Source: Planctomycetota bacterium
GTDB lineage: Bacteria > Planctomycetota > PLA2 > JAEUHO01
Direction of reading: 5' to 3'
Length of the DNA: 64,000 nt
NCBI GenBank assembly: GCA_028281445.1
Contig: JANQJW010000014.1
Coordinates: 30,026-94,025, forward strand
Every line of letters begins with the position of its first letter. The first letter of the stretch is position 1. The translations under genes were made by a program, and so were the position numbers. The notes beneath the pieces are model-generated. The model saw only the letters and a list, made by a program, of their open reading frames with translations. It made no database searches and was not told the DNA's origin. Of the stretch, positions 9,265 through 64,000 are shown in pieces.

Positions 9265-10182
9265 CTAGGCAGGCTGCGCGGCCTCCGCCTCGGCGTCCGC
9301 CGCCGCTTCGAAGCGCTCGCGGATGGCGAGCGTCAGAGGCCCCGGGGCGCCGCTGCCGACCGCCTGCCCGTCGATCGACACGACCGGGAGAATGCCACGT
9401 ACCGACGACGAGAGGAACACCTCGTCCGCCGCCCGCAGTGCCTCGGGGAGCAGCGTGGCCTCCGCCGCGGGAATGCCCGCCTCTTCACACAGCGCGAGGA
9501 TCCGCGTGCGCGTCGTGCCCTTGAGGATGCCCGCGTCGGTGGGCGGCGTCGTGAGCGCGCCGTCCTTGATGGCGTAGACGTTTGCCGTCGTCGCCTCGGT
9601 CACCTGACCGCGTGCGTTGAGCATGATGGCGTCGTCGGCGCCCGCGAGCTTGGCCTCGTGCAACGCGAGCACGTTGTTGAGGTAGTTGCCTGTCTTGGCC
9701 GCGGGGTCCAGCGCCTTCGCCGACAGCCGCAGACGATCGACGAGGGCGGCCCGGAGACCACGCTGCACATCCTCGTCCGACGGGCGGTTCGCGGGAGCGG
9801 CGACGACCACCACGGACTGTCGCGGCGTCTTGGCGAAGTCCAGACCGAGCGGTCCGGCGCCGCGCGTCACGACGAGGCGCACGTACGCGTCGTCGTCCGG
9901 TCCCCCACCGGCCGCGCGGACCGTCGTCTGGATCGCTTCGACGATCTCCTCGCGGGACGCCTGGATCTCCATGTAGAGCCGCCGGGCGGACGCTTCCAGC
10001 CGATCGAGGTGCTCGCGCTCCTGGATGAGCGCGCCCTTGTGCCACCAGAAGACCTCGTACACGGAGTCGCCGAACAGGAAGCCGCGATCGAGCGCGGGGA
10101 CTACCGCCTCCTCGCTGGTCGTTATCCGTCCGTCGACGTTGATGCGTATATCCACGCCGTGATGGTACTTCGCGGTACGCAT
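9265..10182 (-). CDS. Class IV aminotransferase (branched-chain amino acid aminotransferase or aminodeoxychorismate lyase family).
   Basis: DRGFLFGDSVYEV, EATTANVYAIKDG, and GILKGTTR (the GILpGiTR motif) are fold type IV PLP enzyme signatures. Confidence 0.75.
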   Translation of the reverse strand: MRTAKYHHGVDIRINVDGRITTSEEAVVPALDRGFLFGDSVYEVFWWHKGALIQEREHLDRLEASARRLYMEIQASREEIVEAIQTTVRAAGGGPDDDAYVRLVVTRGAGPLGLDFAKTPRQSVVVVAAPANRPSDEDVQRGLRAALVDRLRLSAKALDPAAKTGNYLNNVLALHEAKLAGADDAIMLNARGQVTEATTANVYAIKDGALTTPPTDAGILKGTTRTRILALCEEAGIPAAEATLLPEALRAADEVFLSSSVRGILPVVSIDGQAVGSGAPGPLTLAIRERFEAAADAEAEAAQPA

Positions 10183-10246
10183 GGCGACCCAACGCACGAC
10201 AGGGGCGGATGTTGCGGGAGGATGGGTTCGCACGGACGATGAGCCG

Positions 10247-10795
10247 GTGAGCGAAGATCCGCACACGTTCGAAGGCACCTGCCTGCCGTTTCTGCCGGAC
10301 TGCTACGCCTTCGCGCTGTCGCTCACGCGCAAGAGCCACGAGGCCGAGGACCTCGTGCAGGACACCTTCCTGAAGGCCCAGCGCGCGTTCGCATCGTTCC
10401 AGCAGGGCACCAACGCCAAGGCCTGGTTGTTCACGATCCTGCGCCGACTGCACATCGACATGTACCGGCGCGGACGCCTGCGCCCCACGGCGTTGCCCGA
10501 CGACGAGCTGACCGAGATGGCGCCGCCCAAGGAGGACGACGGCGAGGCGCCGATCGACCTGCCCTGGGACGACCTGCCGCCCGGGGCCGTCGAGCGTGCG
10601 GTGGATGCGGTCCCGGACCCCTTCCGGCTGCCCGTGCGCCTGCGGGACCTCGACGGGCTGTCCTACCGGGAGATCGGCGAGATCCTGGCCATTCCGTCCG
10701 GAACGGTCATGAGCCGCCTGCACCGGGGCCGGGAATACGTGCGCAGGGCCCTCGTTGAGCAGGTGGAAGGAGCCCGGTCGGACGCCGCCGAATGA
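10247..10795 (+). CDS. ECF (RpoE-like) sigma-70 family sigma factor. The start is uncertain: GTG 10247 or ATG 10181.
   Basis: Region 2 (LVQDTFLKAQRAFASF...AWLFTILRRLHID) and region 4 (LSYREIGEILAIPSGTVMSRLHRGR) are both present. The stop overlaps the anti-sigma start (ATGA). Confidence 0.75.
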   Translation: MSEDPHTFEGTCLPFLPDCYAFALSLTRKSHEAEDLVQDTFLKAQRAFASFQQGTNAKAWLFTILRRLHIDMYRRGRLRPTALPDDELTEMAPPKEDDGEAPIDLPWDDLPPGAVERAVDAVPDPFRLPVRLRDLDGLSYREIGEILAIPSGTVMSRLHRGREYVRRALVEQVEGARSDAAE

Positions 10796-11601
10796 CTCGA
10801 GAACTCCACTGGTCCCAGGACGCCGTCGAGCTGGACCGAACGCTCGAGGGCGAGCTGCCGCTCGACGAGCTCGCGGTGCGCCGCGCCGAGATCGCAGCGG
10901 AAGCCGACGTGCGCGTGCGCTGCGAGCAGCGCGAGGAGTTCCTCTCGACGTTGCGCTTCGCGGGCGAGGCGTGGCGCCACGAGCTGCCGTCGCGAGTGCC
11001 GCAGGGCCTCGAGGCGCGCGTGCGCCAGGCGCTGCTGACCGCGCCGAATCCGCGCTACGGCCTGCGCTGGGCGACCGCCGCGGCGGCCGCGCTCGTGATC
11101 GCCCTCGGTGCGTCGCTGTTCCTGACCCCGAGCGGGGGCGATGCGGTCGCCATGCCGCCCGAGGTCGTGAAGGCTGCGGAAGCCGCACGCAGCAGCGCCG
11201 ACGGCCCGCGCACGTGCAGCGACGAAGGCAGCACGAGCCCGAAGCACTTCCCGCCGGTGCGTGACGGCGCGCTGCGGATCTGGCGTTGCGTCGGAGACCG
11301 GCAGGGCACGGTCGCAAAGCTCTATCGCCCCGAGGACTTGCCGTCGATCGGCTACGCGGCCGTTGCGGAGTACGGCGCAGGACACGGGCCGGACATCGGC
11401 ATGACGGACCTCGGCGACATGATCGTCTTCGACGTAGCGTACGGGAACCAGCGTCACTACCTCGCCGTGAGCAAGGAGTGGTACGAGCAGCAGGAGCGCC
11501 GAACTCCGGATCGCGCGAGTTGCACGGCGTGCCACAACCGCTCGAAGGACGGCAGGCCCAACCCGCACAACATCGTGAAGCGATCGTGGGAGCTGCGGTA
11601 G
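10792..11601 (+). CDS. Putative anti-sigma factor, single-pass, with a Cys-containing periplasmic domain.
   Basis: Translationally coupled to the ECF sigma gene. A cytoplasmic N-terminal domain is followed by the TM helix WATAAAAALVIALGASLFL and a ~170-aa periplasmic domain with four Cys (TCSDEG, RCVGD, CTACH). Confidence 0.55.
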   Translation: MTRELHWSQDAVELDRTLEGELPLDELAVRRAEIAAEADVRVRCEQREEFLSTLRFAGEAWRHELPSRVPQGLEARVRQALLTAPNPRYGLRWATAAAAALVIALGASLFLTPSGGDAVAMPPEVVKAAEAARSSADGPRTCSDEGSTSPKHFPPVRDGALRIWRCVGDRQGTVAKLYRPEDLPSIGYAAVAEYGAGHGPDIGMTDLGDMIVFDVAYGNQRHYLAVSKEWYEQQERRTPDRASCTACHNRSKDGRPNPHNIVKRSWELR

Positions 11602-11737
11602 CGCGGGAGGGTCGTGTCTTCGCTCCTGCGGAGCGGCCCTCCCCTACATGATTCTCCGTGTGCCCATGCAAGGACATGTAGGGACGAGCCTTGTGCTCGT
11701 CCGCGGGTTCCTGCCAAACCCCGAGTAGGATCCCGCG

Positions 11738-12985
11738 GTGACCACGGCGCGAGCGAAGTACGGCGACGACGAGATCGAGCTCGCGTTCCCGGCCGGCGTG
11801 GACGTCTCCGTGTTCGCCCCGAAGACGGCGACGAGGGACCACGAGCCCCTCGGCATCGTTGCGCGCGCCGTCGACGTCCCGATCGACGCGCCGCCTCTGG
11901 CAGACGCGGCAGCGAACGCAAAGAACGTCACCGTGGTCGTGCCGGACGGCACGCGGCCGCATGGCGCACGCACGTACCTCCTGCCCGTGCTCGCGCGGCT
12001 CGCCCGGGCGGGTCTCGGTCCCGAGCGCATCCACGTCGTCATGGCCCGCGGCATCCATCCCGCGACCCCGCGCCGCACGGTCGAGGCAATGCTCGGCCCG
12101 GAGATCATGAACCTGCTGCGGCCGGTGCAGTCGGCACCCAAGACGCCGGACATGAACGTGGAGATCGGAAACGACTCTGCGATCGGGCCGGTGCGCGTGC
12201 ACCGACTCGTCGCCGAGGCCGACCTCGTCGTGCTGACAGGTCCGGTCGTCCCCCACCATCTCGCCGGCTTCGGCGGCGGCCCCAAGGCACTCGTGCCGGG
12301 GGTGGCGGACCGGGAGACGGTGCTCTCGGCGCACAGGCTCACGCTGGACGCCCTCGTGCGGCCGGACGGCTCCATTCGCGGCGCCGAGGGTCGGCTCGAC
12401 GGGAACGCCTTCTACGGGGCCCTGTTGCGCGTGGCGCGCACCTTCGGCAAGGCCTGGCTCCTGAACGTCGTGCCCGGCGAGGGCGAGCAGGTGCTGGGTG
12501 CCGCCGCGGGCGAGGTCGGCGCGGCGCACGCCGAAGCGTGCAGGCTCTGGCAGGAGAGCCACGCCGTGGCCGACCCGACGCCCCACGACCTCGTGATCAC
12601 CGGGACGGCGGGCCCGCGGGGCGACGACCTGATCCAGGCGCACAAGGCCCTGCTGCGGGCGCTTCGCTGGGCAAGGCCCGGCGCCCCCATCGTGTGGCTG
12701 GCGCGTGCGCGCAACGGCCCGGGCCACCCGGCGCTCCTGCAGTGGTTCTCCGCCGGCAAGCCGCCGCGACACCTGGCGGCGCTACGCAGGGACTTCCACC
12801 CGTACGGCCTGACCGCCTACAGCCTGCGGCGTATCAGCAAGGACCACCCGGTGCACATCGTCAGCGACATGTCGCGCGACCTGCTTCGGCCGATGGGCTT
12901 CCTCTCCTTCCAGGACCCGCACGCAGCAGTGCGCTACGCCTTGGAAGAGAACGACGTGGAGACGTGCGCGGTCTTGCCGGGGTAG
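11738..12985 (+). CDS. LarA-like protein (lactate racemase N-terminal domain/DUF2088 family). GTG start.
   Basis: Length and motif layout match nickel-pincer lactate racemase homologues (NVTVVVPDGTRPHG, HVVMARGIHPA, GPVVPHHLAGFGGGPKALVPG). Confidence 0.5.
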   Translation: MTTARAKYGDDEIELAFPAGVDVSVFAPKTATRDHEPLGIVARAVDVPIDAPPLADAAANAKNVTVVVPDGTRPHGARTYLLPVLARLARAGLGPERIHVVMARGIHPATPRRTVEAMLGPEIMNLLRPVQSAPKTPDMNVEIGNDSAIGPVRVHRLVAEADLVVLTGPVVPHHLAGFGGGPKALVPGVADRETVLSAHRLTLDALVRPDGSIRGAEGRLDGNAFYGALLRVARTFGKAWLLNVVPGEGEQVLGAAAGEVGAAHAEACRLWQESHAVADPTPHDLVITGTAGPRGDDLIQAHKALLRALRWARPGAPIVWLARARNGPGHPALLQWFSAGKPPRHLAALRRDFHPYGLTAYSLRRISKDHPVHIVSDMSRDLLRPMGFLSFQDPHAAVRYALEENDVETCAVLPG

Positions 12986-12992
12986 GTGCTCG

Positions 12993-15287
12993 TTACTTGG
13001 GCTGCGAGGCCGTCTTGACGGGGACGTCGTTCAGGACGAGATCCAGCCGCTTCTTGAGCTCCTCGACGCCCTTCTCCTTGCCGAACCACTCGCCGACGTC
13101 CGCCTTTCGGCGGATGCGGCCTTGCTTGTCGATGATCGTGATGTAGGGCTGAGCGACGGGAATCCCCAGCGCATCACGGATGGGCATGCGCTTGCCATTC
13201 GTTACGTCGATCTTGATGCGGGCGACCTTTTCGAACCTGGAACGTAGCTCCGGAACTCCGGAGATGAGCTTTTCATACTCCTTGCAGTAGTGTCACCACA
13301 CGGCCCATACGTCGACGACGGCGGGCTTCCCTTCTGCGTTCGCGGCCTTCACAAGCTCAACGAGATGGTCGCGATCCTCGACCTTGGTCCACTCGAGCAA
13401 GTTGTCCGGAGGCTTGGTCAAGAAACCGACCAGGGGGACGACGGCGAACAACATGGCCGCCACCTGCAGTCCGCGAATCCGGGCGGGACGCGGCAGTTCG
13501 CCCTCCTTCTTCTGGAGGTGCCAGGCAACGCCGACAGCGCCCAGGAGCGCGATGGCGCCGCCCATGACGTAGAGCGTCTGCTGGCTAATGAGGCCACCGG
13601 ATCCGAGGTAGTAGAGCGCGGCGCCGACGAGGATGGCGCCAAACGTGTAGCGAACCCAGACCATCCACGGTCCCGGCCGTAGCGCGAAGTTCAGCGAACC
13701 GGCGGCGAAGAAGACCGCGCCCATGCCGAGCCCCAGGGCGAAGAACTCGAAGAAGCCCTGGACGACGTTGCCGCTCTTGGCTGTCGCGATCAGCAGGCCC
13801 GCGATGGCTGGTCCCGTGCAGGGACTGGCGATGATGGCGCCCAGACATCCGAAGAGGAACGCCCCGATGAACGAGCCAGAACGCTTCTGCGCCCCCCCCT
13901 GCAGGTTCATCAGCCAGGCCGGCGGCTGCAGCTCGTAGATGCCCAGCATCATGAAGCCCAGCACGATGAACAAGATCGCGATGGCCCACTGGACGCCGGC
14001 GCTCTCAAAGGCGGCGCTCATGCTGCCGCCGGCCAACGCGGCGACTACGCCGAGCGTGGCAAAGGTCAGTGCAAGGCCCGCCACATAGGTGAGCAGCAAC
14101 CGCGCCAAGCGGCCTTTGGGGATGTCGGCGTTGCCGCCGCTGATCACGCTGACCGTGATCGGGATGATCGGCAGCACGCAGGGCGTGAACGCCAAGCCCA
14201 TGCCGATCAAGAAGAGCAACAGGAGACTCCCACCGGCCACGTTCTTCTTCTTGCCGACCGCGCCCAGGTCATCGTCATCGACGACCGGGAAGAGCACTTC
14301 GCCCTTGGGTCGCTCCTGCTCAGCGGGCTCCGGGTCCGTGGCCGGCGCGACACCGCCCCCCGCCCACGTCGCCCGGAGGATGATGTCCTGCTCAGGAGTC
14401 AGGCACGTTCCCACGTCGTCGCAGGCGCCGTAGGAGACCTTGACCTCGAGCTGTGTGGCGCTGGTATCGCGCTCGAACTTGATGAGGACGCTATACGGAT
14501 CCGTGATGGTGCCGTCGGCATCGGGAATCTCGGGGAAGCGCGGCTTACCCCACTTCACACCTTCTGCTTTTACGGGCTCGACGCTGATGGGGAAGCCCTT
14601 CTTGCTGCCCGGCGGATAGAAGTGCCAGCCGAAGCCCGGCGTAAAGGTGACGGCAACCAGGCCCTTCTCCTCGTCCACGCGCATCCTGACGCCGCCACCC
14701 TGGCTGTCGGGCACGTTCTTGATCTTGGGCCCGGCGTCGGCCGCCACGTTCGGCGGGACCGGCGCGCCGTTCTTCTTGCCGCCCGCACCGGGCGCGACAC
14801 CGCCTGCGGCGGCTCCGCCAACGACGGCGACAGCCTGGTGATCCTTGACCGGGGGATAGCAGCCGCGGTCGTTGCAGCCGAAGTAGGTGAACGTCATGCC
14901 GACCTTGGTGCCCGGCTTGACGTCCTTGGAGAGTGTCACCTTCGTGTTGACGGTGAAGGTCCCCTCCCACACGTCGAACTCATCATCCATCGGGTCTTTC
15001 CAGACGTGATGCTTGCTGATCTCCGGCTTGCCGTACGTCACGCCGTCGGCCTCGATCGGGCCGTACTTCATGGCCTGATCGCCGGTGGCGTAGATGTGGA
15101 GCTTCGGAAGCAGCGTCGCCTCGATGACGAGCATGCCGCTCTGGCCGGGCTTCAGGTCGGCGGGATCGAGGCGGGCCTCGATGTCGATGCGGCCGGTGAC
15201 GGGATCGCCCGCCCAAGCCGGGCTGGCGGCGACGAGGAACAGGACGGCGACGAGGAGCGCCGGACGGGCGCGCGCGCGGCTTCTCAT
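12993..15287 (-). CDS. dsbD: Thiol:disulfide interchange protein DsbD with an in-frame TGA (13293..13295) at the first position of the thioredoxin CXXC. Candidate selenoprotein (U-H-Y-C), otherwise a pseudogene.
   Basis: Signal peptide, a duplicated DsbD alpha-like periplasmic domain (two GCNDRGCY/GACDDVGTC-type motifs), and a TM core with CVLPIIP...ASPCTGP. The C-terminal thioredoxin domain is AVVDVWAVW-TGA-HYCKEYEK.... The ORF track splits the gene at the TGA, but the 64-aa downstream ORF (12993..13187) is in the same frame and is the rest of the thioredoxin fold (cis-Pro region GIPVAQPYITIID). Confidence 0.7.
13248..13263 (-). promoter_or_regulatory. Candidate SECIS-like hairpin downstream of the in-frame UGA of dsbD.
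   Basis: mRNA CUCCGG-AGUU-CCGGAG: a perfect 6-bp stem with a G/U-containing 4-nt loop, 33-48 nt after the U of UGA, with possible extension by flanking pairs. Confidence 0.35.
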
Positions 15288-15513
15288 GGGGGGACTCCGA
15301 ATGCGCAGCCGGGCGGAAAGCCGGGCAGCCGGATCTGGATTCTATGACAGCCGCGGGCCGGCGGCCTGCACGCCATCAGCGACGGGTGAAGTCAGGGACC
15401 TGTTTCACCCTACAAATCGGGCCCAAACGGTCACGAGATGACCTCTGCCCACGCCGCGAGCGCCCGGGCCCCCTCTGCGCCCTCTGCCCTCCTCCGCGTA
15501 CTCTGCGTTTCCC

Positions 15514-17030: not shown

Positions 17031-20000
17031 TTAGCGGCCCGCGTGGAGCACGCTGAAGCGCTCGCCGCCCGGACGCCGGGTAGGCGTCCTCGCGTTCGTC
17101 GCCGGATTGACGGCGTACTCGACGAGCTCCTTGACGTCCTCGTTCGCCCCACCGCTCTTGAACGCGTAGTAGAGCTTCGTGCCGCCGGTGTCGAAGGCCA
17201 TCTTCTCGCCCGCGCGGCCCTGGGCCGCCTCGGCATTGAAGGCGTCGAGGGTGCCCTCGAGCGCACCCGTCGTGGGGTTGAGCCGGATGTTGCGGACGAC
17301 GCCGACGAACTCGCGCTCGTGGCGGACCGTGGTGCCACCGGTGTTGTAGACGTAGGCGAGGCGGTCACCCTTCGGATCAACCGAGATGTAGTTGATCATC
17401 CGAGTGGCCGTGTTGCTCGTCGTGTTGGTCGAGAGGCGGTTGATCGGACCGCCGACGTCCGCCGCGAAGCCCTCGATGGCACCGCCGACGTAGCCGTAGT
17501 CGCCCCAGAACTGCGGGATCTGCGGCCCGCTGAACACCGTGAAGCTGCTCGTACCCGTCTGCTGCGTCGGCCCGCTGCGCTGGTAGTGGCTCGCGAAGTA
17601 CACGTTGCCAGTCTCGCGGTTCAGGTGCTGCAGGCCCGCGATCTGCGCGTGCGCCGCCAAGTAGTAGGCGTCGTCGAGCACGTAGTGCGGCTGGTAGTAG
17701 TAGTTCGGGATGAAACCACGGCGGTTCGGCCAGTTGCCGAGCTTGAAGCCGCGGCCGGCCGCGTGGCCGTTGATCGTCGGGCCGGTCAGGCTCGAGATGT
17801 TGATGCCGAGAAGGGTCAACTGCGTCTGGTCCGAGCTCGAGTTGGGGTGCATGTTCACCACGTAGAAGAAGTTGCCGTTCTTCGAGATGAAGCCGCCCAT
17901 GGGCTTGACGTTGCCGGCAGTCTGCACGTACGTGGAGGTCGGGTTGGGCACGAAGGCCGTCGTGATGAGTCCGCCGCCGCCGGTCGTACCGCCGGCCGTG
18001 GTGGGCATCACGTAGCGCACCTCGTCGTTCAGGAAGTTGTAGCTGTAGAACTGGCCCGAGAAGTGGTACGAGGCCGACGACGAGTTGCCCCTCGTGGGCG
18101 AAGCCGTGCTCGTACCGTTGTGGGCACTCATGCCGCCCCAGAAGAACAGTCCGTCACCGTCCTTCGTGAAGACCAGCGCACCGAAGCGCCAGAGGATCGT
18201 GCCGCCGAACTTGGTGGGCGTGATTAGCACGTCGCCGGTACGCGACGTCCACGGGTCGGCCGCGTTGCCGCCCGTCGCGGAGACCGCGAAGACGTCCTGG
18301 CGGTTGTTGTTCCACTCGCTGTTCGAGCCGAACCAGCTATTGATCGTGCCGCGCGTGTTGTAGCAACCCGCGACGCGCGATCCGTCGTGGCAGATCTCGA
18401 AGCCGGTCGTCGGGCCCGTGAAGCGGCCCCAGTGCTGGTAGTTGCGCGGGCCACGCGTGAGCGAGTAGCCACGGCCGGCGCCCTGCGGCATGTGCCGTCG
18501 CGTGGCCGAAGCCTGGCGGAAGCCGTTGCCGTTCGAGTCGACCCAGACGTAGTGGCTCATGACGTTGGCGCTACCGGCGCTCGGCTGGTTCGGACCGGCG
18601 AGGCATGCCATGTGGCCGCCGTCACCACTGCAGCGGAAGGGCATCGGAGCCAGGGAGCTCTCGAACCCGTTCCAGCCGTCGTACAGGTACATCTCGTCCT
18701 GCGTGGTGAAGTAGAACGTCGTACCGCCAGGCGCGAACGCCGACGCACGCTGGACAAGCGTGTTCCACAGGTGGAACGGGCAGTCCATCGGCACCGTCGT
18801 CGTCTGCGTCCAGTTCGCGTTGGCCGCAGCCACGGGCGCGAGCGAGCCGGCACCCGAGCCGTCGTCGATCCGGAGGCGGTGGACCCAGTGGCCCTCGATG
18901 CTCGCCGTCGCGCCGCTGTTCTGGCCTGTCAGCCAGTAGAGGTAGTCGTTGCTCATCGCCATGCTGGTCGAATAGAGGTAGTTGTCCGAGACGCCGGGCG
19001 TCGGGTCGACGAACTTGTAGGTGTTGCCACCCCACAGGGCCTCGCCACAGAGCGAGATGATCACGATGCGGGAGTTGCTGACCAGCGAGCGGCTGCTGAG
19101 CGAGGTCGACGTCCCGCCCGGGTTGTCGTTGTGGCTGGTCACCTTGAACGCCGCGAAGCGGTTGTCGGGACTCACCGTGACGGGCACGGCCGTCAGGATG
19201 CTACTCGCGCCGAACTTGATGTCCGCGGAGACGCCGTCGGCGAAGTGCTCGACACCGTTCGTGCCCTTGAGGCAGGCCCACGGCACGTAGATCTGCGAGT
19301 TCTTGCGGATGATGAACACGCCGATGCGCTTGCTGTTGGCCGTAGTGTCCTTCGTCTCATAGAAATAGAGTTGGCCGCCATCGTTGCGCACACCGTTGCT
19401 GTAGCCCGGCACCGTCGCCACGGTGGGCGCCGGCGGGATGTCCAGGCTGCTGACGCTGGGCTGCCACGAACCACCGCCGGAGCGGTACTGGTTGTTCCAG
19501 GCCGACCAGCTGCGCTGCATGTCGACGTTCATGCGGGCGCGCGCGCCGTGCGGGTTCATGTTGTGGTTGTCGTACCCGTAGTGGGTCGGGTTCGGCGTGG
19601 GACGCAGGAGGTCCATCTCGTCGGTCGAGAGGAGCTCACCGATGTCGTCCGGCGTGTTGAGAGCCGCGATGCCCGGGATGCTCGTCCCGACGCTCAACTC
19701 GGTCGCGCCGAGCGGGCTGACCGTGCCGCTGCCACCGATGAACTCGAGCTTCTGCAGGATGAGCTGGTCATCGTGCATCTGGTAGTCACCGTTGGAGGTC
19801 GTCGAGGTCGCGGTCGAGCCGACGCTGCTCTCGGTGACGATGACGAGGTCCGGGCCCACGCTGATGCAGAAGGGCCGGCGCACCTCGTTGCGCACCTGGA
19901 GCGGCAGCTGCCAGTCGTTGCACTGGATGTCGAAGTCCGTGGCGGACGAGCGCACGAGGGCGACCTGGTCCGCCGCCGTCTCGGTCCCGAAGAGACCCAC

Positions 20001-21647
20001 GTAGCGATTGAAGAGGCTCAGACCCGGGAGGTTGGCCAGGTTCTGGCCGACGGGCAGAACGTCCTGCCCGAACGCACCGCCGACCGTGTCGGAGACGGCC
20101 CAGTCGTATTCATTCTCGATCTCGGCAGTCGTCAGCGCCTGGAAGCGCGTGTTCTCGTGCGGCGAGTCGATACGGCCGTCAGCCCGCACGCCGCCCAGGG
20201 CGCGCAGCTTGAGGCCGGCTGCCATATGGAAGGTCGTGTCCGGGTTGTAGTTCTGGAGAACCTCGGCCTCGGGCAGGGTCGGCTTGCTCGCAAAGCTCTG
20301 CTCCAGCGTGACCGCCGGGTCCATCTCGAACGGGTTGCTCGCGGCGATGCTGAAGGAGATCGGCTTGAAGGCGTGCTGGCCGCGTTCCTTGGGAACGAGC
20401 GTGCTCCAGGCGTGGACGAAGACGCGGAAGTCACCGCGACGGCGCGGGGTGCCCAGGATGGCCCCGGCGCTGGCGCCGGAGGTCTTCATGTAGAGGCCTT
20501 CGGACGGATACGGATTGCCCGTGCCCGCGGGCGCGACCTGGTTGCCGCCGTAGTCGGGGCCGAAGTCGTTCAGTGCCGGATAGACCGTGCGGCTGGGGCC
20601 CGCCTGGCCGTTGACGGTGTCGACCGCCGCCGTCGCGTTGAGGCGGGCGTCGGACGACGGGCCGGCCTCGAGGAGCGTGATGGTCTTGCCGCCCTCGGTC
20701 GAGTTGACCGTCGGGACGGCAGGCGAGGCGAACGTGATGTCGTCGAACTTGCTCAGATCGTTCGTGGGATCGTCACCGGGAACGTCGTCCACGAACTCGA
20801 AGAGGAGCGGCGGGACGCCGTCGACCGCGGTAATCGAGTCGGAGAAGACGAGGCCGGCCTGGCCGTTCCCGAAGGTGTCCTGCGGCAGGATGATCGGGGG
20901 CGTATCGATCTTCCACTGGAACTTGCGCTCGGCCGAGTTGCCGACGCTGTCCGTGACGCGCACGGTGAAGCGGAAGGGGACACCACCGGGGAGGACCTGC
21001 GACGGGGTGCCGACGAGGGTGCAGGAGTTGGGCACCATCGAGACGCCGAGCGGAAGCGCCGGCGGGCCGTCGTTCGGATCGAGCGGATCGTCGACGATGA
21101 TGCAGCTGTACCCGGAGATGCCGGGGACGCCGCCCGCTGCGATGAGGTCGTAGGAGATGAAGGTACTGAACACCGTCGTCTCGAGCGCGTCGATGTCGTT
21201 GTACTTCGCCGGGTCGTTGAAGTTGGCGACCGGGATGATCGGCGGGTTCGCAGCAACGATCTTCAGGGGACCGACGCCGACCTCCCACGTAAACGAGGCG
21301 AAGGTCGAGAAGTCCGGCTCGCAGCCCACGTCGGTGATGCGGATCACCACCGGGAACCGGCCGCTCTCGAGCACGATGCCCGTGATGTGGTGACGGCCGT
21401 TGTCGTCATCCACCGCGACGCCGTCCGGCAGCCGACCGTCGATGATCTCGACGATGTACTGGCCCCCGCAACCGCCCTCGAGCTCGATGGCGAAGTCGAC
21501 CGCCTCACCGGAGAGGGTCTGGGGGAACGTGGTGCTCATGATCACGAGGGGATCAATGGGCACTCGATAGCCTTGTCCGCTGCCACACGACGGGGCGATG
21601 GCGAACGCAAGCAAGGCGACGAAAATGACGATGTAGCGCATGGGCAC
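17031..21647 (-). CDS. Very large (1538 aa) predicted lipoprotein/surface protein with N-terminal putative Ig-like (He_PIG/cadherin-like) domains. Function unknown.
   Basis: Signal peptide plus lipobox (LLAFAIAPSCGSG). Two N-terminal ~90-aa repeats have the He_PIG-type motif (ITGIVLESGRFPVVIRITDVG; LVGTPSQVLPGGVPFRFTVRVTDSVGNS). The rest is G/S/T/N-rich with no catalytic motifs. The ORF is uninterrupted. Confidence 0.6.
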   Translation of the reverse strand: MPMRYIVIFVALLAFAIAPSCGSGQGYRVPIDPLVIMSTTFPQTLSGEAVDFAIELEGGCGGQYIVEIIDGRLPDGVAVDDDNGRHHITGIVLESGRFPVVIRITDVGCEPDFSTFASFTWEVGVGPLKIVAANPPIIPVANFNDPAKYNDIDALETTVFSTFISYDLIAAGGVPGISGYSCIIVDDPLDPNDGPPALPLGVSMVPNSCTLVGTPSQVLPGGVPFRFTVRVTDSVGNSAERKFQWKIDTPPIILPQDTFGNGQAGLVFSDSITAVDGVPPLLFEFVDDVPGDDPTNDLSKFDDITFASPAVPTVNSTEGGKTITLLEAGPSSDARLNATAAVDTVNGQAGPSRTVYPALNDFGPDYGGNQVAPAGTGNPYPSEGLYMKTSGASAGAILGTPRRRGDFRVFVHAWSTLVPKERGQHAFKPISFSIAASNPFEMDPAVTLEQSFASKPTLPEAEVLQNYNPDTTFHMAAGLKLRALGGVRADGRIDSPHENTRFQALTTAEIENEYDWAVSDTVGGAFGQDVLPVGQNLANLPGLSLFNRYVGLFGTETAADQVALVRSSATDFDIQCNDWQLPLQVRNEVRRPFCISVGPDLVIVTESSVGSTATSTTSNGDYQMHDDQLILQKLEFIGGSGTVSPLGATELSVGTSIPGIAALNTPDDIGELLSTDEMDLLRPTPNPTHYGYDNHNMNPHGARARMNVDMQRSWSAWNNQYRSGGGSWQPSVSSLDIPPAPTVATVPGYSNGVRNDGGQLYFYETKDTTANSKRIGVFIIRKNSQIYVPWACLKGTNGVEHFADGVSADIKFGASSILTAVPVTVSPDNRFAAFKVTSHNDNPGGTSTSLSSRSLVSNSRIVIISLCGEALWGGNTYKFVDPTPGVSDNYLYSTSMAMSNDYLYWLTGQNSGATASIEGHWVHRLRIDDGSGAGSLAPVAAANANWTQTTTVPMDCPFHLWNTLVQRASAFAPGGTTFYFTTQDEMYLYDGWNGFESSLAPMPFRCSGDGGHMACLAGPNQPSAGSANVMSHYVWVDSNGNGFRQASATRRHMPQGAGRGYSLTRGPRNYQHWGRFTGPTTGFEICHDGSRVAGCYNTRGTINSWFGSNSEWNNNRQDVFAVSATGGNAADPWTSRTGDVLITPTKFGGTILWRFGALVFTKDGDGLFFWGGMSAHNGTSTASPTRGNSSSASYHFSGQFYSYNFLNDEVRYVMPTTAGGTTGGGGLITTAFVPNPTSTYVQTAGNVKPMGGFISKNGNFFYVVNMHPNSSSDQTQLTLLGINISSLTGPTINGHAAGRGFKLGNWPNRRGFIPNYYYQPHYVLDDAYYLAAHAQIAGLQHLNRETGNVYFASHYQRSGPTQQTGTSSFTVFSGPQIPQFWGDYGYVGGAIEGFAADVGGPINRLSTNTTSNTATRMINYISVDPKGDRLAYVYNTGGTTVRHEREFVGVVRNIRLNPTTGALEGTLDAFNAEAAQGRAGEKMAFDTGGTKLYYAFKSGGANEDVKELVEYAVNPATNARTPTRRPGGERFSVLHAGR

Positions 21648-59102: not shown

Positions 59103-59716
59103 TACGCGTCCTCGCCCTCGTCGCCCGCCTCTTCCGTCGCCGGCTCCGGTGCCTTCACGACGAGGACCTCCGCGGCGCGGACGACGCGGCCGTGAAGCTC
59201 GTAGCCGGGGCGCATGACCTCGCACACCGTCTGCGGGTCGAAGTCCGGGTTCTCGACCATCATCATCGCCTGGTGGCGGCCGGGATCGAACGGCTGGGCC
59301 AGCGCCTCGATCTCCGTGACCCCGTGCTTGCCCAGGACGGCTTGAAGCTGCTTACCTACGAGATCGAGTCCCGTGCGCGCCGGATCGTCCTCGCCGAGCT
59401 CCTTGTGCGCGCTGTACAGCGCGTCGAGCACCGGTAACAAGTCGACAACGACGCCTTCGATCGCGAACTTCTGGCGCTCGCCCTCCTGACGGCGCAGGCG
59501 CTTCGTCTCGTTGACGAACTCGGCTTCGACTCTCTTGAGGCGGTCGGCCAGCTCGACCGCGCGGGCGGCGTCGGCTTTCAGCGCCTCGAGGTCAACCGGA
59601 TCTGCTGCGCCGTCTTCGACCGGTTCCGGCGTGGGCTCGGCCGTCGGCTCGTCCCCGTGTACGGGCAGCTCGTCAGTGTCCGGCTCGCGTCCTTCGTTGG
59701 TACTCATCTCGCTCAC
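59102..59716 (-). CDS. grpE: Nucleotide exchange factor GrpE.
   Basis: GrpE signature in the C-terminal half ([13 protein letters not shown]...[23 protein letters not shown]). Overlaps the dnaJ stop. Confidence 0.85.
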
Positions 59717-60852
59717 TTCTTCTTGCGGCGCTTCTCTTGCGCGCGCAGGTGGTCCTTGAGCTGGTCCATGAACTTGCGACGCGCGGGACCGGTCTCGCCG
59801 CTCTCGGCCTCCTTCAGTCCGTCGAGTGCCTTGCGGAGCTTCTTGCCGGGGCGCTTGGGGACGTCGTAGAGCACCTGGACGTATAGGTGGCCGCGCCCGC
59901 CGCGCTGGAACCGCGGGAGGCCGCCGCCACGAACGCGAAGGGTGTCGCCGGGCTGCGTGCCCGCGTCGATGTCGAGCGTCATCTTGCCTTCGAGCGACGG
60001 AATCTCGATCTCACCGCCGAGAACGGCGGTGCTGATCGGCACGGGCGCGCGTAGGAAGATGTCTGCGGGGTCGTCCGGCGAGCGCAGGAACAGGTCGTGG
60101 TCCTTCACGTGCACGCGCACGCTCAGGTCGCCGGGCACGCCGCCTCGGGGCGCGGGCTCGCCTTCGCCCGGAACGCGCATCGTGATGCCGTCGAACACGC
60201 CGGGCGGGATCGTGAGCTCGATCTCGCGCCGGCCCATGACCAGGCCTTCACCGCGGCAGGCTCGGCACGGGTCCTCGACGACCGCGCCTTCTCCGTCGCA
60301 CCGCGGGCACGCGCGGCGCATCGAGAAGAAGCCCTCGCTGGAGACGATGTAGCCGTGGCCGCCGCACGCACCGCAAGCCACGGGCGGCTTCTTGTCCTTC
60401 GAGCCGGTACCGGTGCAGGTGTCGCACGAGACGCGCCGCCGGAGGCTCAGCGTCTTGTGGATCTCCTCGGTGACGTCCTCGAATGGCACGCTGATCTCGG
60501 CACGCAGGCTCGCGCCGCGACGCATGCCGCCTTGCCCGCCGCTGCGCCCGAAGAACGCACCGAAGAGATCGGAGAACGCGCCGAAGATGTCGGAGACGTC
60601 GGTGAAGCCCACCTGGCCGTCGAGCCCGGCGTGGCCGTGGCGGTCGTAGACCTCGCGCTTCTGCGGATCCGAGAGCACGTCGTACGCCTCGGACGCCTCC
60701 TTGAAGCGCTCCTCGGCGGATGCATCGCCGGGGTTCTTGTCGGGGTGGTACTTCAGCGCCAGCCGCCGGTAGGCGGTCTTGATCTCGCTCTCACCGGCCC
60801 CGCGCGGGACCTGCAGAACTTCGTAGTAGTCGCGCTTTCCCACGTCAGGCAC
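59713..60852 (-). CDS. dnaJ: Molecular chaperone DnaJ.
   Basis: J domain ([33 protein letters not shown]), a G/F region, and four CxxCxGxG zinc-finger repeats. Confidence 0.9.
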
Positions 60853-60933
60853 GGTGCGATGGTACTCCCCGAACAGCCGTTCAAAGACGGATTGAGTCGC
60901 CCTGCGCCCAACAAAGCCGAACGTGTCGCAGAA

Positions 60934-61090
60934 GAACTCCGCAGAGACGCAGAGTCACGGAGCGCGCACCTCCGAGCGCAACGCAATTCCTGTTGAACTC
61001 CGTCCCGTAGCTCTGAGCCCGGGACTCAAGACGGACTGCGTACGACGGCTGGAGACGCTCTGCGCCTCTGTACCTCTGTACCTCTGCGGA
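60934..61090. repeat. Inverted repeat element, family B, copy 2, upstream of dnaJ.
   Basis: tccgcagagacgcagagtcacggagcg ... cgctctgcgcctctgtacctctgtacctctgcgga. Same arm consensus as 55228..55372, with a different spacer. Confidence 0.7.
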
Positions 61091-62698
<1,608 letters not shown>

Positions 62699-62752
62699 GA
62701 TGGCTCCGATGTCGTCGTTGCTACTACTTCAGGCAGTTACAGGTTGGGACCA

Positions 62753-63043
62753 CTACTTCGTGATGAGCGCGAGGACCTCGCCCTCGCGGAGGATCTTGTA
62801 GTCCTCGCCGTTCCAGTTGATCTCGTTGCCGGCGTACTTGCCGAACAGGATCTCGTCGCCGACGTTGACGCTCATGCCGAGCCGCTCGCCTTCGTCGTTG
62901 CGCGCGCCTTCGCCGATGGCGACGACGACCGCGCGCTGGGGCTTTTCCTTCGCGCTGTCGGGCAGGAGGATCCCGCCGGCCGACTTCTCTTCCGCTTCGA
63001 TCTGCTTGACGACGATGCGGTCGTCCAGGGGGCGAATCGCCAT
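62753..63043 (-). CDS. groES: Co-chaperonin GroES.
   Basis: 96 aa with a GroES mobile loop and core (RPLDDRIVVK...AGGILLPDSAKEKPQ). Confidence 0.95.
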   Translation of the reverse strand: MAIRPLDDRIVVKQIEAEEKSAGGILLPDSAKEKPQRAVVVAIGEGARNDEGERLGMSVNVGDEILFGKYAGNEINWNGEDYKILREGEVLALITK

Positions 63044-63093
63044 GTCTCTACTCCTCGTCTTCGCTCTTCTGCGTTGCTCTGTTGATTACTCGA

Positions 63094-64000
63094 CTAGAAG
63101 TCCTCGTCCATGCCCGGTGCGGCCTCGCCTTCCTCCTCGGGGAGGTCGGCGATCAGCGTGTCGGTGGACATGAGCAGGGCCGCCACGCTGGCGGCGTTCT
63201 GCAGCGCGCTGCGCGAGACCTTCGTCGGGTCGACGATGCCGGCGTCGAACATGTCGGTCTCCTTGCCCGTGTGGGCGTCGAAGCCGACGGTCTGCTTGGC
63301 CTTGCGCACGTTGCGCAGCACGACGTGCCCCTCGTAGCCCGCGTTGTCGGCGATGGTGCGCAGCGGCACCTGCAGCGAGTCGAGCACGACCTGGACGCCC
63401 AGCGCTTCGTCGCCTTCCGTCTCGTCGAGCAGCTTCTTGACGGCCTTCTCAGCGCGGACGAACGCGGTGCCGCCGCCGGCGAGGATGCCCTCCTCGACCG
63501 CCGCGCGGGTGGCGTGGAGCGCGTCCTCGACGCGCGCCTTCTTCTCCTTCATCTCGGTCTCGGTGGCTGCGCCGACCTCGATCTGGGCCACGCCGCCGGC
63601 GAGCTTGGCGAGGCGCTCCTGAAGCTTCTCGCGGTCGTAGTCCGAGTCGGTGTTCTCCGTCTCGCGCCGGATCTGCATGAGGCGCGCGGACAGCGCGGAG
63701 GCCTGGCCGACCCCGTCGACGATGACCGTGCTGTCGCCGTCGACCGTCACGCGGCGGCAGGAGCCGAGATCGTCGAGCGTGACCTGCTCCAGGTCCGCGC
63801 CGACATCGGGGAACATGGCCTTCGCACCCGTCAGGATCGCGATGTCCTCGAGCATGGCCTTGCGGCGGTCGCCGTAGCCAGGCGCCTTGACAGCGACCGT
63901 CTGCACGACGCCGCGCAGGCGGTTGAGCACGAGCGTCGCGAGCGCGTCGCCTTCGACGTCCTCGGCGATGATCAGGAGCGAGCGACCCGTCTTGCTGATC
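63094..64000 (-). CDS. groEL: Second GroEL paralogue, C-terminal ~300 aa only. The 5' end lies beyond the window.
   Basis: GroEL apical/equatorial C-terminal sequence ([23 protein letters not shown]...[10 protein letters not shown]). Ends ...GMDEDF. Only 50 bp separate it from groES downstream. Confidence 0.9.

Follow-up and report, generated by a model that had tools for sequence, protein, structure and literature searches.

Pairs of an extracytoplasmic function (ECF) sigma factor and an anti-sigma factor are among the commonest signalling devices of bacteria, and the signal to which they respond is mostly unknown, especially in Planctomycetota. The closest known systems to the one described here are the class I (ZAS-type, zf-HC2) pairs of a transmembrane anti-sigma factor and an ECF sigma factor, such as RslA/SigL, RsiW/SigW and RseA/SigE. 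We investigated a pair of this kind in a 64,000-nucleotide stretch of DNA (the window) from a Planctomycetota bacterium (GenBank assembly GCA_028281445.1, contig JANQJW010000014.1, positions 30,026 to 94,025 of the forward strand), in which it is followed by a gene for a LarA homologue and by a convergent gene for the disulfide reductase DsbD (10181-15287). The window, with a G+C content of ~68-70%, is a core chromosomal region that also holds the nuo operon, Lon, Der, DnaJ, two GroEL copies and PdxA. A first-pass annotation of this DNA had proposed that the anti-sigma factor is a thiol switch kept reduced by DsbD. We found that its conserved periplasmic cysteines include the signature of a c-type haem attachment site. 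The explanation that we consider best, with confidence and doubt about evenly balanced, is a co-translated ECF sigma/anti-sigma pair with a haem-c-type periplasmic sensor and with dsbD as a candidate target.

The locus holds a genuine ECF sigma/class-I-type anti-sigma module. The sigma open reading frame (ORF; 10181..10795, plus strand) matched Pfam Sigma70_r2 (9e-17) and r4_2 (1e-11), with no other domains, and scored 79.8 bits against the NCBIfam model sigma70-ECF (TIGR02937; cutoff, 42.9). No defined ECF group could be assigned, since the best specific model, SigH_actino, reached 134 bits with a cutoff of 251.6 and all others also stayed below their cutoffs. The ATG at 10181, which is the start of the mechanically called ORF, would overlap the start codon (10180-10182) of a divergent gene for a class IV aminotransferase. 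Because the homologues begin 8 to 10 residues ahead of a conserved F-E-x-T-C-L-P-F-L, the start of the sigma gene is most likely GTG 10247, which would give a group IV sigma factor of 182 residues (10247..10795). The stop codon TGA (10793-10795) overlaps the ATG of the anti-sigma gene (10792-10794), confirming the ATGA coupling of the two ORFs that had been noted before, and the same 4-nt overlap was seen at five other loci (L004, L011, L012, L013 and L015). A tRNA-Leu(GAG) of 97 nt called by ARAGORN at 10312-10408 (plus strand) was discarded as a false positive, given its length, its position in conserved coding sequence of the sigma gene and the absence of a tRNA match in Rfam.

The anti-sigma gene (10792..11601, plus strand) encodes a protein of 269 residues, in which an anti-sigma domain (1-83) is followed by a transmembrane helix (~89-112) and, in the periplasm, by a lineage-specific alpha/beta sensor domain (~121-265). 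Its only hydrophobic segment spans residues 93-112 (Kyte-Doolittle mean of 2.0 over 19 residues), and in an AlphaFold2 model the helices at 11-83 had a predicted local distance difference test score (pLDDT) of >95, with a transmembrane helix at 89-110. Since there is a single transmembrane helix and the N-terminal anti-sigma domain is cytoplasmic, the topology places residues 112-269 on the periplasmic side. This part was previously described as being ~170 residues long with four cysteines; the four cysteines (C142, C166, C244 and C247) are there, and the length comes to ~158 residues. The protein itself matched no Pfam or NCBIfam model. Searching 5.8 billion proteins by indexed words retrieved 19 relatives, and comparing a full profile with 1.84 billion cluster representatives gave 76 matches, ~45 of them with the full architecture and 260 to 290 residues. 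The weaker profile matches covered the N-terminal 100 to 120 positions only, and 7 of 10 that were tested proved to be zf-HC2 (ZAS-type) anti-sigma factors. DUF3379 matched 4 of the 19 relatives weakly; the match inspected, from one member, fell in the N-terminal part, and DUF3379 was rejected as a family assignment for the periplasmic domain. Every named source of the family is a Planctomycetota metagenome-assembled genome (MAG), and the family is small, single-copy and fixed in its position. The H-x3-C-x2-C zinc motif is absent from the cytoplasmic part of the protein, no His or Cys is conserved within residues 1-85 in the family alignment, and the fifth cysteine, C44, is cytoplasmic and not conserved. 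Lacking the zinc motif, the protein would therefore not sense through cytoplasmic thiols. By its sequence, it is a class-I-type anti-sigma factor that has lost the zinc ligands and has no cytoplasmic zinc or thiol site, and it is predicted to bind the sigma factor.

All four periplasmic cysteines are invariant in the 38 members aligned, down to 28% identity, so that the lack of conservation that would have spoken against a role of these residues was not observed. C142 (11215-11217) and C166 (11287-11289), present in 38 of 38 sequences (11215..11289, plus strand), are probably joined in a structural disulfide. The other two lie in C244-T-A-C247-H248 (11521-11535), which is followed by N257-P258-H259 (11560-11568), and together these form a candidate c-type haem attachment site with a distal His (11521..11568, plus strand). 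The residues that are invariant in the 38 sequences are C142, C166, G203, D214, C244, C247, H248, P258, H259 and R264, and N257 is kept in 35. The C-terminal block has the consensus C-A-A-C-H-G … N-P-H … R, with Ala at the second variable position in 32 of the 38 and Val in the others. Indeed, C-x-x-C-H is the canonical attachment motif for c-type haem, in which the His is the proximal ligand, and class I cytochromes c typically show CAACHG as their consensus. The second invariant His, that of N-P-H, stands 11 residues after C-x-x-C-H and could be the distal ligand. A C-x-x-C-H with a second invariant His thus points to a haem attachment signature rather than to a plain thiol switch. Because the motif is invariant and the domain is periplasmic, we think that the sensor may bind c-type haem, a claim in which we have neither more nor less than even confidence, and what C-A-A-C-H-G … N-P-H would most likely hold is a covalent c-type haem with His/His ligation.

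We also modelled the periplasmic domain alone from 37 sequences (pLDDT of 89.9; predicted template modelling score of 0.87). It consists, in order, of a helix, six antiparallel strands, a helix, a short helix with C-x-x-C-H, a loop with N-P-H and a final strand. This fold is not thioredoxin-like, and no known family of cytochromes c or haem-c sensors proved homologous to the domain in sequence or fold. A precedent is provided by the DUF3365/Tll0287 family of Cache sensors, described with experimental proof of their haem c in a 2026 preprint, for which an exceptional conservation of CXXCH correctly predicted covalent haem and in which CXXCH lies in a short helix and loop ahead of the last strand; sigma or anti-sigma factors are not mentioned there (PMC12889525). 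Our literature search returned nothing relevant on CXXCH, haem or cytochrome-type anti-sigma factors. Between the membrane and the sensor domain, 6 to 8 residues past the hydrophobic segment, lies a small-x-small motif, A118-V-A120 (11143..11151, plus strand), which resembles the -3 and -1 positions of a signal peptidase I site. Of the 38 sequences, 36 have A, G or S at position -1, and 37 have A, T, V, S or G at position -3. By analogy with RsiV, this might be a regulated site-1 cleavage point, which we put forward as a lead and not as a finding.

We then considered the output of the module. An AAC at -35 together with a CGT at -10 is the hallmark of ECF-dependent promoters, and the first-pass annotation had suggested looking for such a promoter upstream of both the sigma operon and dsbD. 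The search succeeded for dsbD only. A candidate ECF-type promoter, GAAAC-N16-CCGTC, is located upstream of dsbD (15381..15406, minus strand) and is the sole exact match to this motif in the window. The exact motif occupies the same relative position, 117 to 134 nt before the dsbD ATG, in the window and at L002, L006, L008 and L010, and only its two pentamers are invariant between them. In 232 kb searched on both strands, it occurred 7 times, of which 5 were at dsbD, compared to 2.7 matches in shuffled sequences. L012 carries a variant upstream of dsbD, TGAAC-N16-CGTC. The conservation of this motif suggests that, in this clade, dsbD is very probably under the control of an ECF sigma factor. 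The same motif is absent upstream of the sigma operon and of larA. With no matching promoter at the sigma operon, the dsbD promoter cannot be assigned to this sigma factor in particular, and that the neighbouring factor is the one that acts on dsbD is a tentative suggestion, which we hold to be possible without thinking it probable. A generic scan with GGAAC-N15-18-CGT gave 10 matches versus 11 expected, none of them upstream of the sigma gene or of dsbD, and a scan with the sigma-70 consensus gave no match.

The conservation of the neighbourhood was assessed at 16 loci recovered through the anti-sigma factor or LarA. Identities to the window proteins, taken from the first 13 of these loci, are 27-58% for the anti-sigma factor, 57-78% for the sigma factor, 41-69% for LarA, 43-59% for DsbD and 52-73% for the aminotransferase. 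The anti-sigma factor is thus the fastest-evolving protein of the block, and yet its motif is invariant. The sigma/anti-sigma/larA trio adjoins dsbD in all 12 loci that reach this position, except L016. On contigs that are long enough, the gene order in all but one locus is VWA, PdxA, two small genes, a HEAT protein, an ABC permease, the aminotransferase, sigma, anti-sigma, LarA, DsbD, PTPS, TetR, a small gene and a protein of ~1,500 residues.

How the module might work can be outlined as follows. The state of the haem site, whether holo or apo, the redox state of the iron or the binding of a ligand, would decide if the periplasmic domain stays folded and protective. If maturation failed or the state of the site changed, the anti-sigma factor would be cut, possibly at the small-x-small site and then within the membrane, and its cleavage would release the sigma factor. 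The LarA-family enzyme would normally be transcribed with the pair. As a candidate target, dsbD would close a feedback loop, which is the least secure link of the scheme. DsbD-derived electrons keep the cysteines of C-x-x-C-H reduced for haem attachment. In a more specific form, the anti-sigma factor would be a c-type haem protein that matures via the DsbD-fed pathway, and a failure of this maturation would lead to its cleavage, to release of the sigma factor and to induction of dsbD from GAAAC-N16-CCGTC. We regard this complete circuit as doubtful. If it were true, it would be a self-correcting sentinel for cytochrome c maturation and disulfide reduction, and would include the first haem-c-based anti-sigma factor. 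The structure of the genes, the family, the invariance of the motif, the quality of the model and the conservation of the promoter and of the gene order were observed directly; in this scheme, we infer the binding of haem, the proteolytic release and the identity of the sigma factor that uses the dsbD promoter. The link between the module and DsbD is plausible but unproven.

Several observations weigh against a haem-c-type sensor module acting on dsbD. The block that is colinear between the loci (744-21647) comprises ~15 genes from both strands in a stretch of at least 21 kb and is far larger than the module. Absence of neighbourhood conservation, which would have counted against the first-pass proposal, was thus not what we found, but conservation across a whole block does not discriminate between readings. 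Synteny was therefore dropped as a functional test: it is formally positive but uninformative with a colinear block of at least 21 kb, and, as the conservation spans unrelated genes, it provides no evidence for a link between the sigma factor and DsbD. At L016, which belongs to a Planctomycetia MAG, there is no dsbD and larA is inverted. No clear match to the dsbD promoter was found at L001, L007, L014 and L015, nor an exact one at L012. Within the 300 nt upstream of the sigma gene at 11 loci, AAC-N15-18-CGT had no consistent match, and autoregulation of the sigma operon through such an element was rejected. Moreover, Planctomycetota encode many ECF sigma factors, and none of the genes of the window that were scanned was seen to serve cytochrome c maturation.

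The alternatives fare differently with the same evidence. In a thiol-disulfide switch, as first proposed for this DNA, the four periplasmic cysteines would be redox-active and kept reduced by DsbD, either directly or via a thioredoxin-like partner, and their oxidation would release the sigma factor with no cofactor involved. The four cysteines are indeed invariant and include a C-x-x-C, dsbD is adjacent in the loci that reach it except L016, and it has an ECF-type promoter in five loci. The logic of such a circuit is shared with the haem-based explanation, since electrons derived from DsbD are needed for haem ligation at C-x-x-C-H. A plain switch leaves unexplained, however, why the His after C-x-x-C and the second His 11 residues on are as invariant as the cysteines. 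Characterised direct clients of DsbD (DsbC, DsbG and CcmG) are thioredoxin-fold proteins, and the modelled domain, whose fold is of another kind, would not be a typical direct client. The synteny that suggested the connection is block-wide, and L016, which keeps the sigma factor and an anti-sigma factor with C…C…C-A-A-C-H…N-P-H, does so without an adjacent dsbD. In view of the C-x-x-C-H…N-P-H signature, the fold, the extent of the synteny and L016, the proposal of a thiol switch kept reduced by DsbD, though supported in part, is weakened, and we consider it unlikely. The same C-terminal segment could instead be read as a metal site, in which C244, C247, H248 and H259, possibly with C142 and C166, would bind periplasmic Zn, Cu or Fe and occupancy would control the anti-sigma factor. 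An invariant Cys2His2-like set in a compact segment would suit this, and periplasmic metal-sensing partners of ECF systems do exist (CnrYXH). The adjacent C247 and H248 would be a poor chelating pair, though, while their arrangement is exactly that of haem c; the CAACHG consensus is class I cytochrome c-like, and the conserved block holds no gene for metal transport or resistance. A metal sensor thus appears quite improbable.

It might also be that there is no circuit at all. The module would then respond to an unrelated envelope cue, its Cys and His residues would be structural, larA and dsbD would be adjacent merely through regional colinearity, and the dsbD promoter would serve another ECF sigma factor, for example one for general envelope stress. 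What has been said above of the block fits with this, as the colinearity of at least 21 kb and ~15 genes persists down to ~52% aminotransferase identity, the locus is rearranged at L016, and the sigma operon and dsbD share no promoter motif. Targets of ECF sigma factors are often adjacent genes, which speaks for a circuit, and the sigma, anti-sigma and larA genes are tightly spaced on the same strand everywhere but at L016. In addition, the motif is invariant in what is otherwise the fastest-evolving protein of the block (27-58% identity versus 57-78% for the sigma factor). LarA homologues, on the other hand, are very common in Planctomycetota (PMC11770544), which would suit a mere adjacency of larA. 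On balance, we doubt that a circuit is lacking altogether, and retain the haem-c-type sensor module as the best explanation. The hypothesis is specific and cheaply testable, with the ECF-type promoter of dsbD as a concrete, testable output, but it relies on what motifs suggest for organisms that are not in culture.

The third gene of the trio, larA (11738..12985, plus strand), has a Lar_N domain (1e-44) and starts 136 bp after the anti-sigma stop codon, exactly as described before. Against the NCBIfam subgroup models, the protein scored best with LarAH6 (231 bits; cutoff, 500), followed by scores of 207, 191 and 189 with others, the cutoffs ranging from 460 to 540. It thus failed to reach the cutoff for any of the characterised substrate subgroups (LarA, LarAH5, LarAH6, LarAH10 and others). 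In an alignment with the LarA and malate racemase structures 2YJG and 6D6Z, the equivalents of R75, H108, H174, K184, H200, Q295 and K298 are retained, within the motifs D-G-T-R-P, A-R-G-I-H, P-H-H-L-A-G-F-G-G-G-P-K and L-S-A-H. Of these residues, R75, K184 and H200 have roles in cofactor binding and H108 and H174 in catalysis (PMC11770544). Because cofactor and catalytic residues are retained, the protein is probably active as a nickel-pincer-nucleotide-dependent 2-hydroxyacid racemase or epimerase. LarB, LarC and LarE were not found among the window genes scanned, and we found no report in the literature of a LarA/DUF2088 gene behind an ECF sigma/anti-sigma pair. In the window and at 14 loci other than L016, larA lies on the same strand as the anti-sigma gene with a gap of 11 to 136 nt, and it is therefore likely to be co-transcribed with the sigma/anti-sigma pair.

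The 136-nt spacer between the anti-sigma gene and larA (11602..11737, plus strand) can form four consecutive hairpins and is found in the window only, the spacers of the other loci measuring 11 to 110 nt. Its minimum free energy is -80.9 kcal/mol (z = -6.2), and none of 200 shuffled sequences folded as low. No second copy is present in the window or at the 16 loci, and a repeat element was therefore rejected. The spacer might have arisen by insertion of a palindromic element, or else serve as an attenuator or for processing.

DsbD is encoded tail to tail with larA (12993..15287, minus strand), the two stop codons being 7 bp apart as stated in the first-pass annotation. The protein has two DsbD_N-like domains, DsbD_TM and a C-terminal thioredoxin domain; Pfam finds DsbD_TM at 7e-45, DsbD_N in two stretches and Trx weakly. 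Against the NCBIfam DsbD model, it scored 265 bits with a cutoff of 330, although all three domain types are found, and the codon for the first cysteine of its gamma domain is TGA. What appear to be tandem DsbD_N (alpha)-like domains, at residues ~47-151 and ~200-300, each have their own Cys pair (F-G-C-N-D-R-G-C-Y-P-P and Y-G-A-C-D-D-V-G-T-C-L-T-P). DsbD homologues are 776 to 902 residues long. The in-frame TGA (13293-13295, minus strand) is the first position of W-x-H-Y-C, which corresponds to the W-C-x-x-C of the thioredoxin domain, and reading through it adds 100 codons, with a G+C content at third codon positions of 0.83. In nine DsbD homologues, the codon at this position is TGC or TGT. 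A hairpin resembling a selenocysteine insertion sequence (SECIS), GGAG-U-AUGA / AAAGC / UCAU-CUCC (13260..13281, minus strand), begins 11 nt past the UGA and has an 8-bp stem, a bulged U and a G-containing loop. It is present in the window only and absent from the homologues with Cys, from which its codons (UAU, GAA, CUC and UCC) differ. The fold of the region as a whole was not significant (z = -0.6), there was no Rfam match, no tRNA-Sec was found in the window, and no selenocysteine machinery was seen. As the hairpin, found in the window only, is made of distinct codons, and as the coding signal continues past the TGA, the sequence favours selenocysteine rather than a recent nonsense mutation. 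The view of DsbD as a candidate selenoprotein thus gains from the TGA at a Cys site and from the SECIS-like hairpin, but a conserved role in the circuit is not borne out, Cys being found in nine homologues. A selenocysteine, if present, is peculiar to this genome rather than conserved with the module.

Other elements were found in the regions upstream of dsbD and of the sigma gene. A sigma-70-like -10 element, TAGAAT (15339..15344, minus strand), lies ~55 nt before dsbD. By inspection, GTAGAAT or GTAGAAC was seen at L001, L002, L006, L007, L008, L010 and L014, with CATAGAAT in the window. This element is likely to be a second, housekeeping promoter of dsbD. At 15415-15423, adjoining the PTPS gene, GATT(T)GTAGG on the minus strand contains a plus-strand TACAAT-like hexamer (TACAAA in the window), and the two elements between dsbD and PTPS look like a divergent pair of housekeeping promoters, of which they would be the -10 boxes. 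Upstream of the sigma gene (10211..10246, plus strand), we noted GTTGC, ~19 nt, GA(G/C)GAT or CACGAT, 6 to 7 nt and the start codon. On inspection, the window (GACGAT, 6 nt, GTG) and L002, L004, L005 and L006 all showed this spacing. It may represent either a sigma-70-like promoter with a leaderless mRNA or a -10-like element with a Shine-Dalgarno site. The conserved GC-rich TCGGCGGTTGC upstream of the sigma gene was rejected as a regulon motif, as it is not enriched (57 matches versus 51 expected).

Some features of the surrounding genes were also recorded. The order of the block is maintained (L012, L014, L015 and L016) even at ~52% aminotransferase identity, an unusual stability for genes that are not in an operon. 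The ABC permease of the block is of double length. The protein of 1,538 residues (17031-21647, minus strand) has the same position in all long loci at 31-46% identity, with a weak He_PIG match in its homologues. Further along the window, DnaJ lies at 59713-60954, and two Cpn60/GroEL-family genes are adjacent on the minus strand (61091-62728 and 63094-63999), with an ORF of 111 codons (62753-63085, minus strand) between them.

Compared with described systems, the pair recalls RsrA/SigR and RshA/SigH in that SigH_actino is the best model for the sigma factor and in the idea of Cys-based redox sensing. However, RsrA is soluble and cytoplasmic and senses via its ZAS cysteines, whereas the conserved cysteines here are periplasmic and none is conserved in the cytoplasmic domain, and the sigma factor is far below the SigH_actino cutoff (134 vs 251 bits). 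RsiV is an anti-sigma factor that is cut at site-1 by signal peptidase. The module resembles RsiV/SigV in the small-x-small site just outside the transmembrane helix, a possible regulated signal-peptidase site; it differs in having no homology to RsiV and another ligand, and cleavage here is purely hypothetical. The LarA homologue shares Lar_N and the cofactor and catalytic residues with the LarA superfamily, while falling below the cutoffs of all its characterised subgroups. With respect to the sensor, the nearest parallels are sCache_haem (DUF3365/Tll0287; PMC12889525) and the PAS-like sensors of the chemoreceptors GSU0582 and GSU0935 (PMC3460858), which are periplasmic and carry covalent c-type haem. 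The anti-sigma factor has in common with these haem-c sensors a single family-wide CXXCH, placed in a short helix/loop before the last beta-strand, and an alpha/beta fold.

Thus, the ECF sigma factor, the class I anti-sigma domain, the LarA family and DsbD are all of known kinds. What is new, as judged from sequence and predicted structure, is an anti-sigma factor whose periplasmic sensor domain has an invariant haem-c-type site and no close relative among solved structures or families, and a conserved ECF-type promoter candidate on dsbD. If the sensor does bind haem, it would represent a new class of anti-sigma input, be it redox state, a gas or cofactor maturation, and would extend covalent haem in extracytoplasmic sensors to a third type of transducer.

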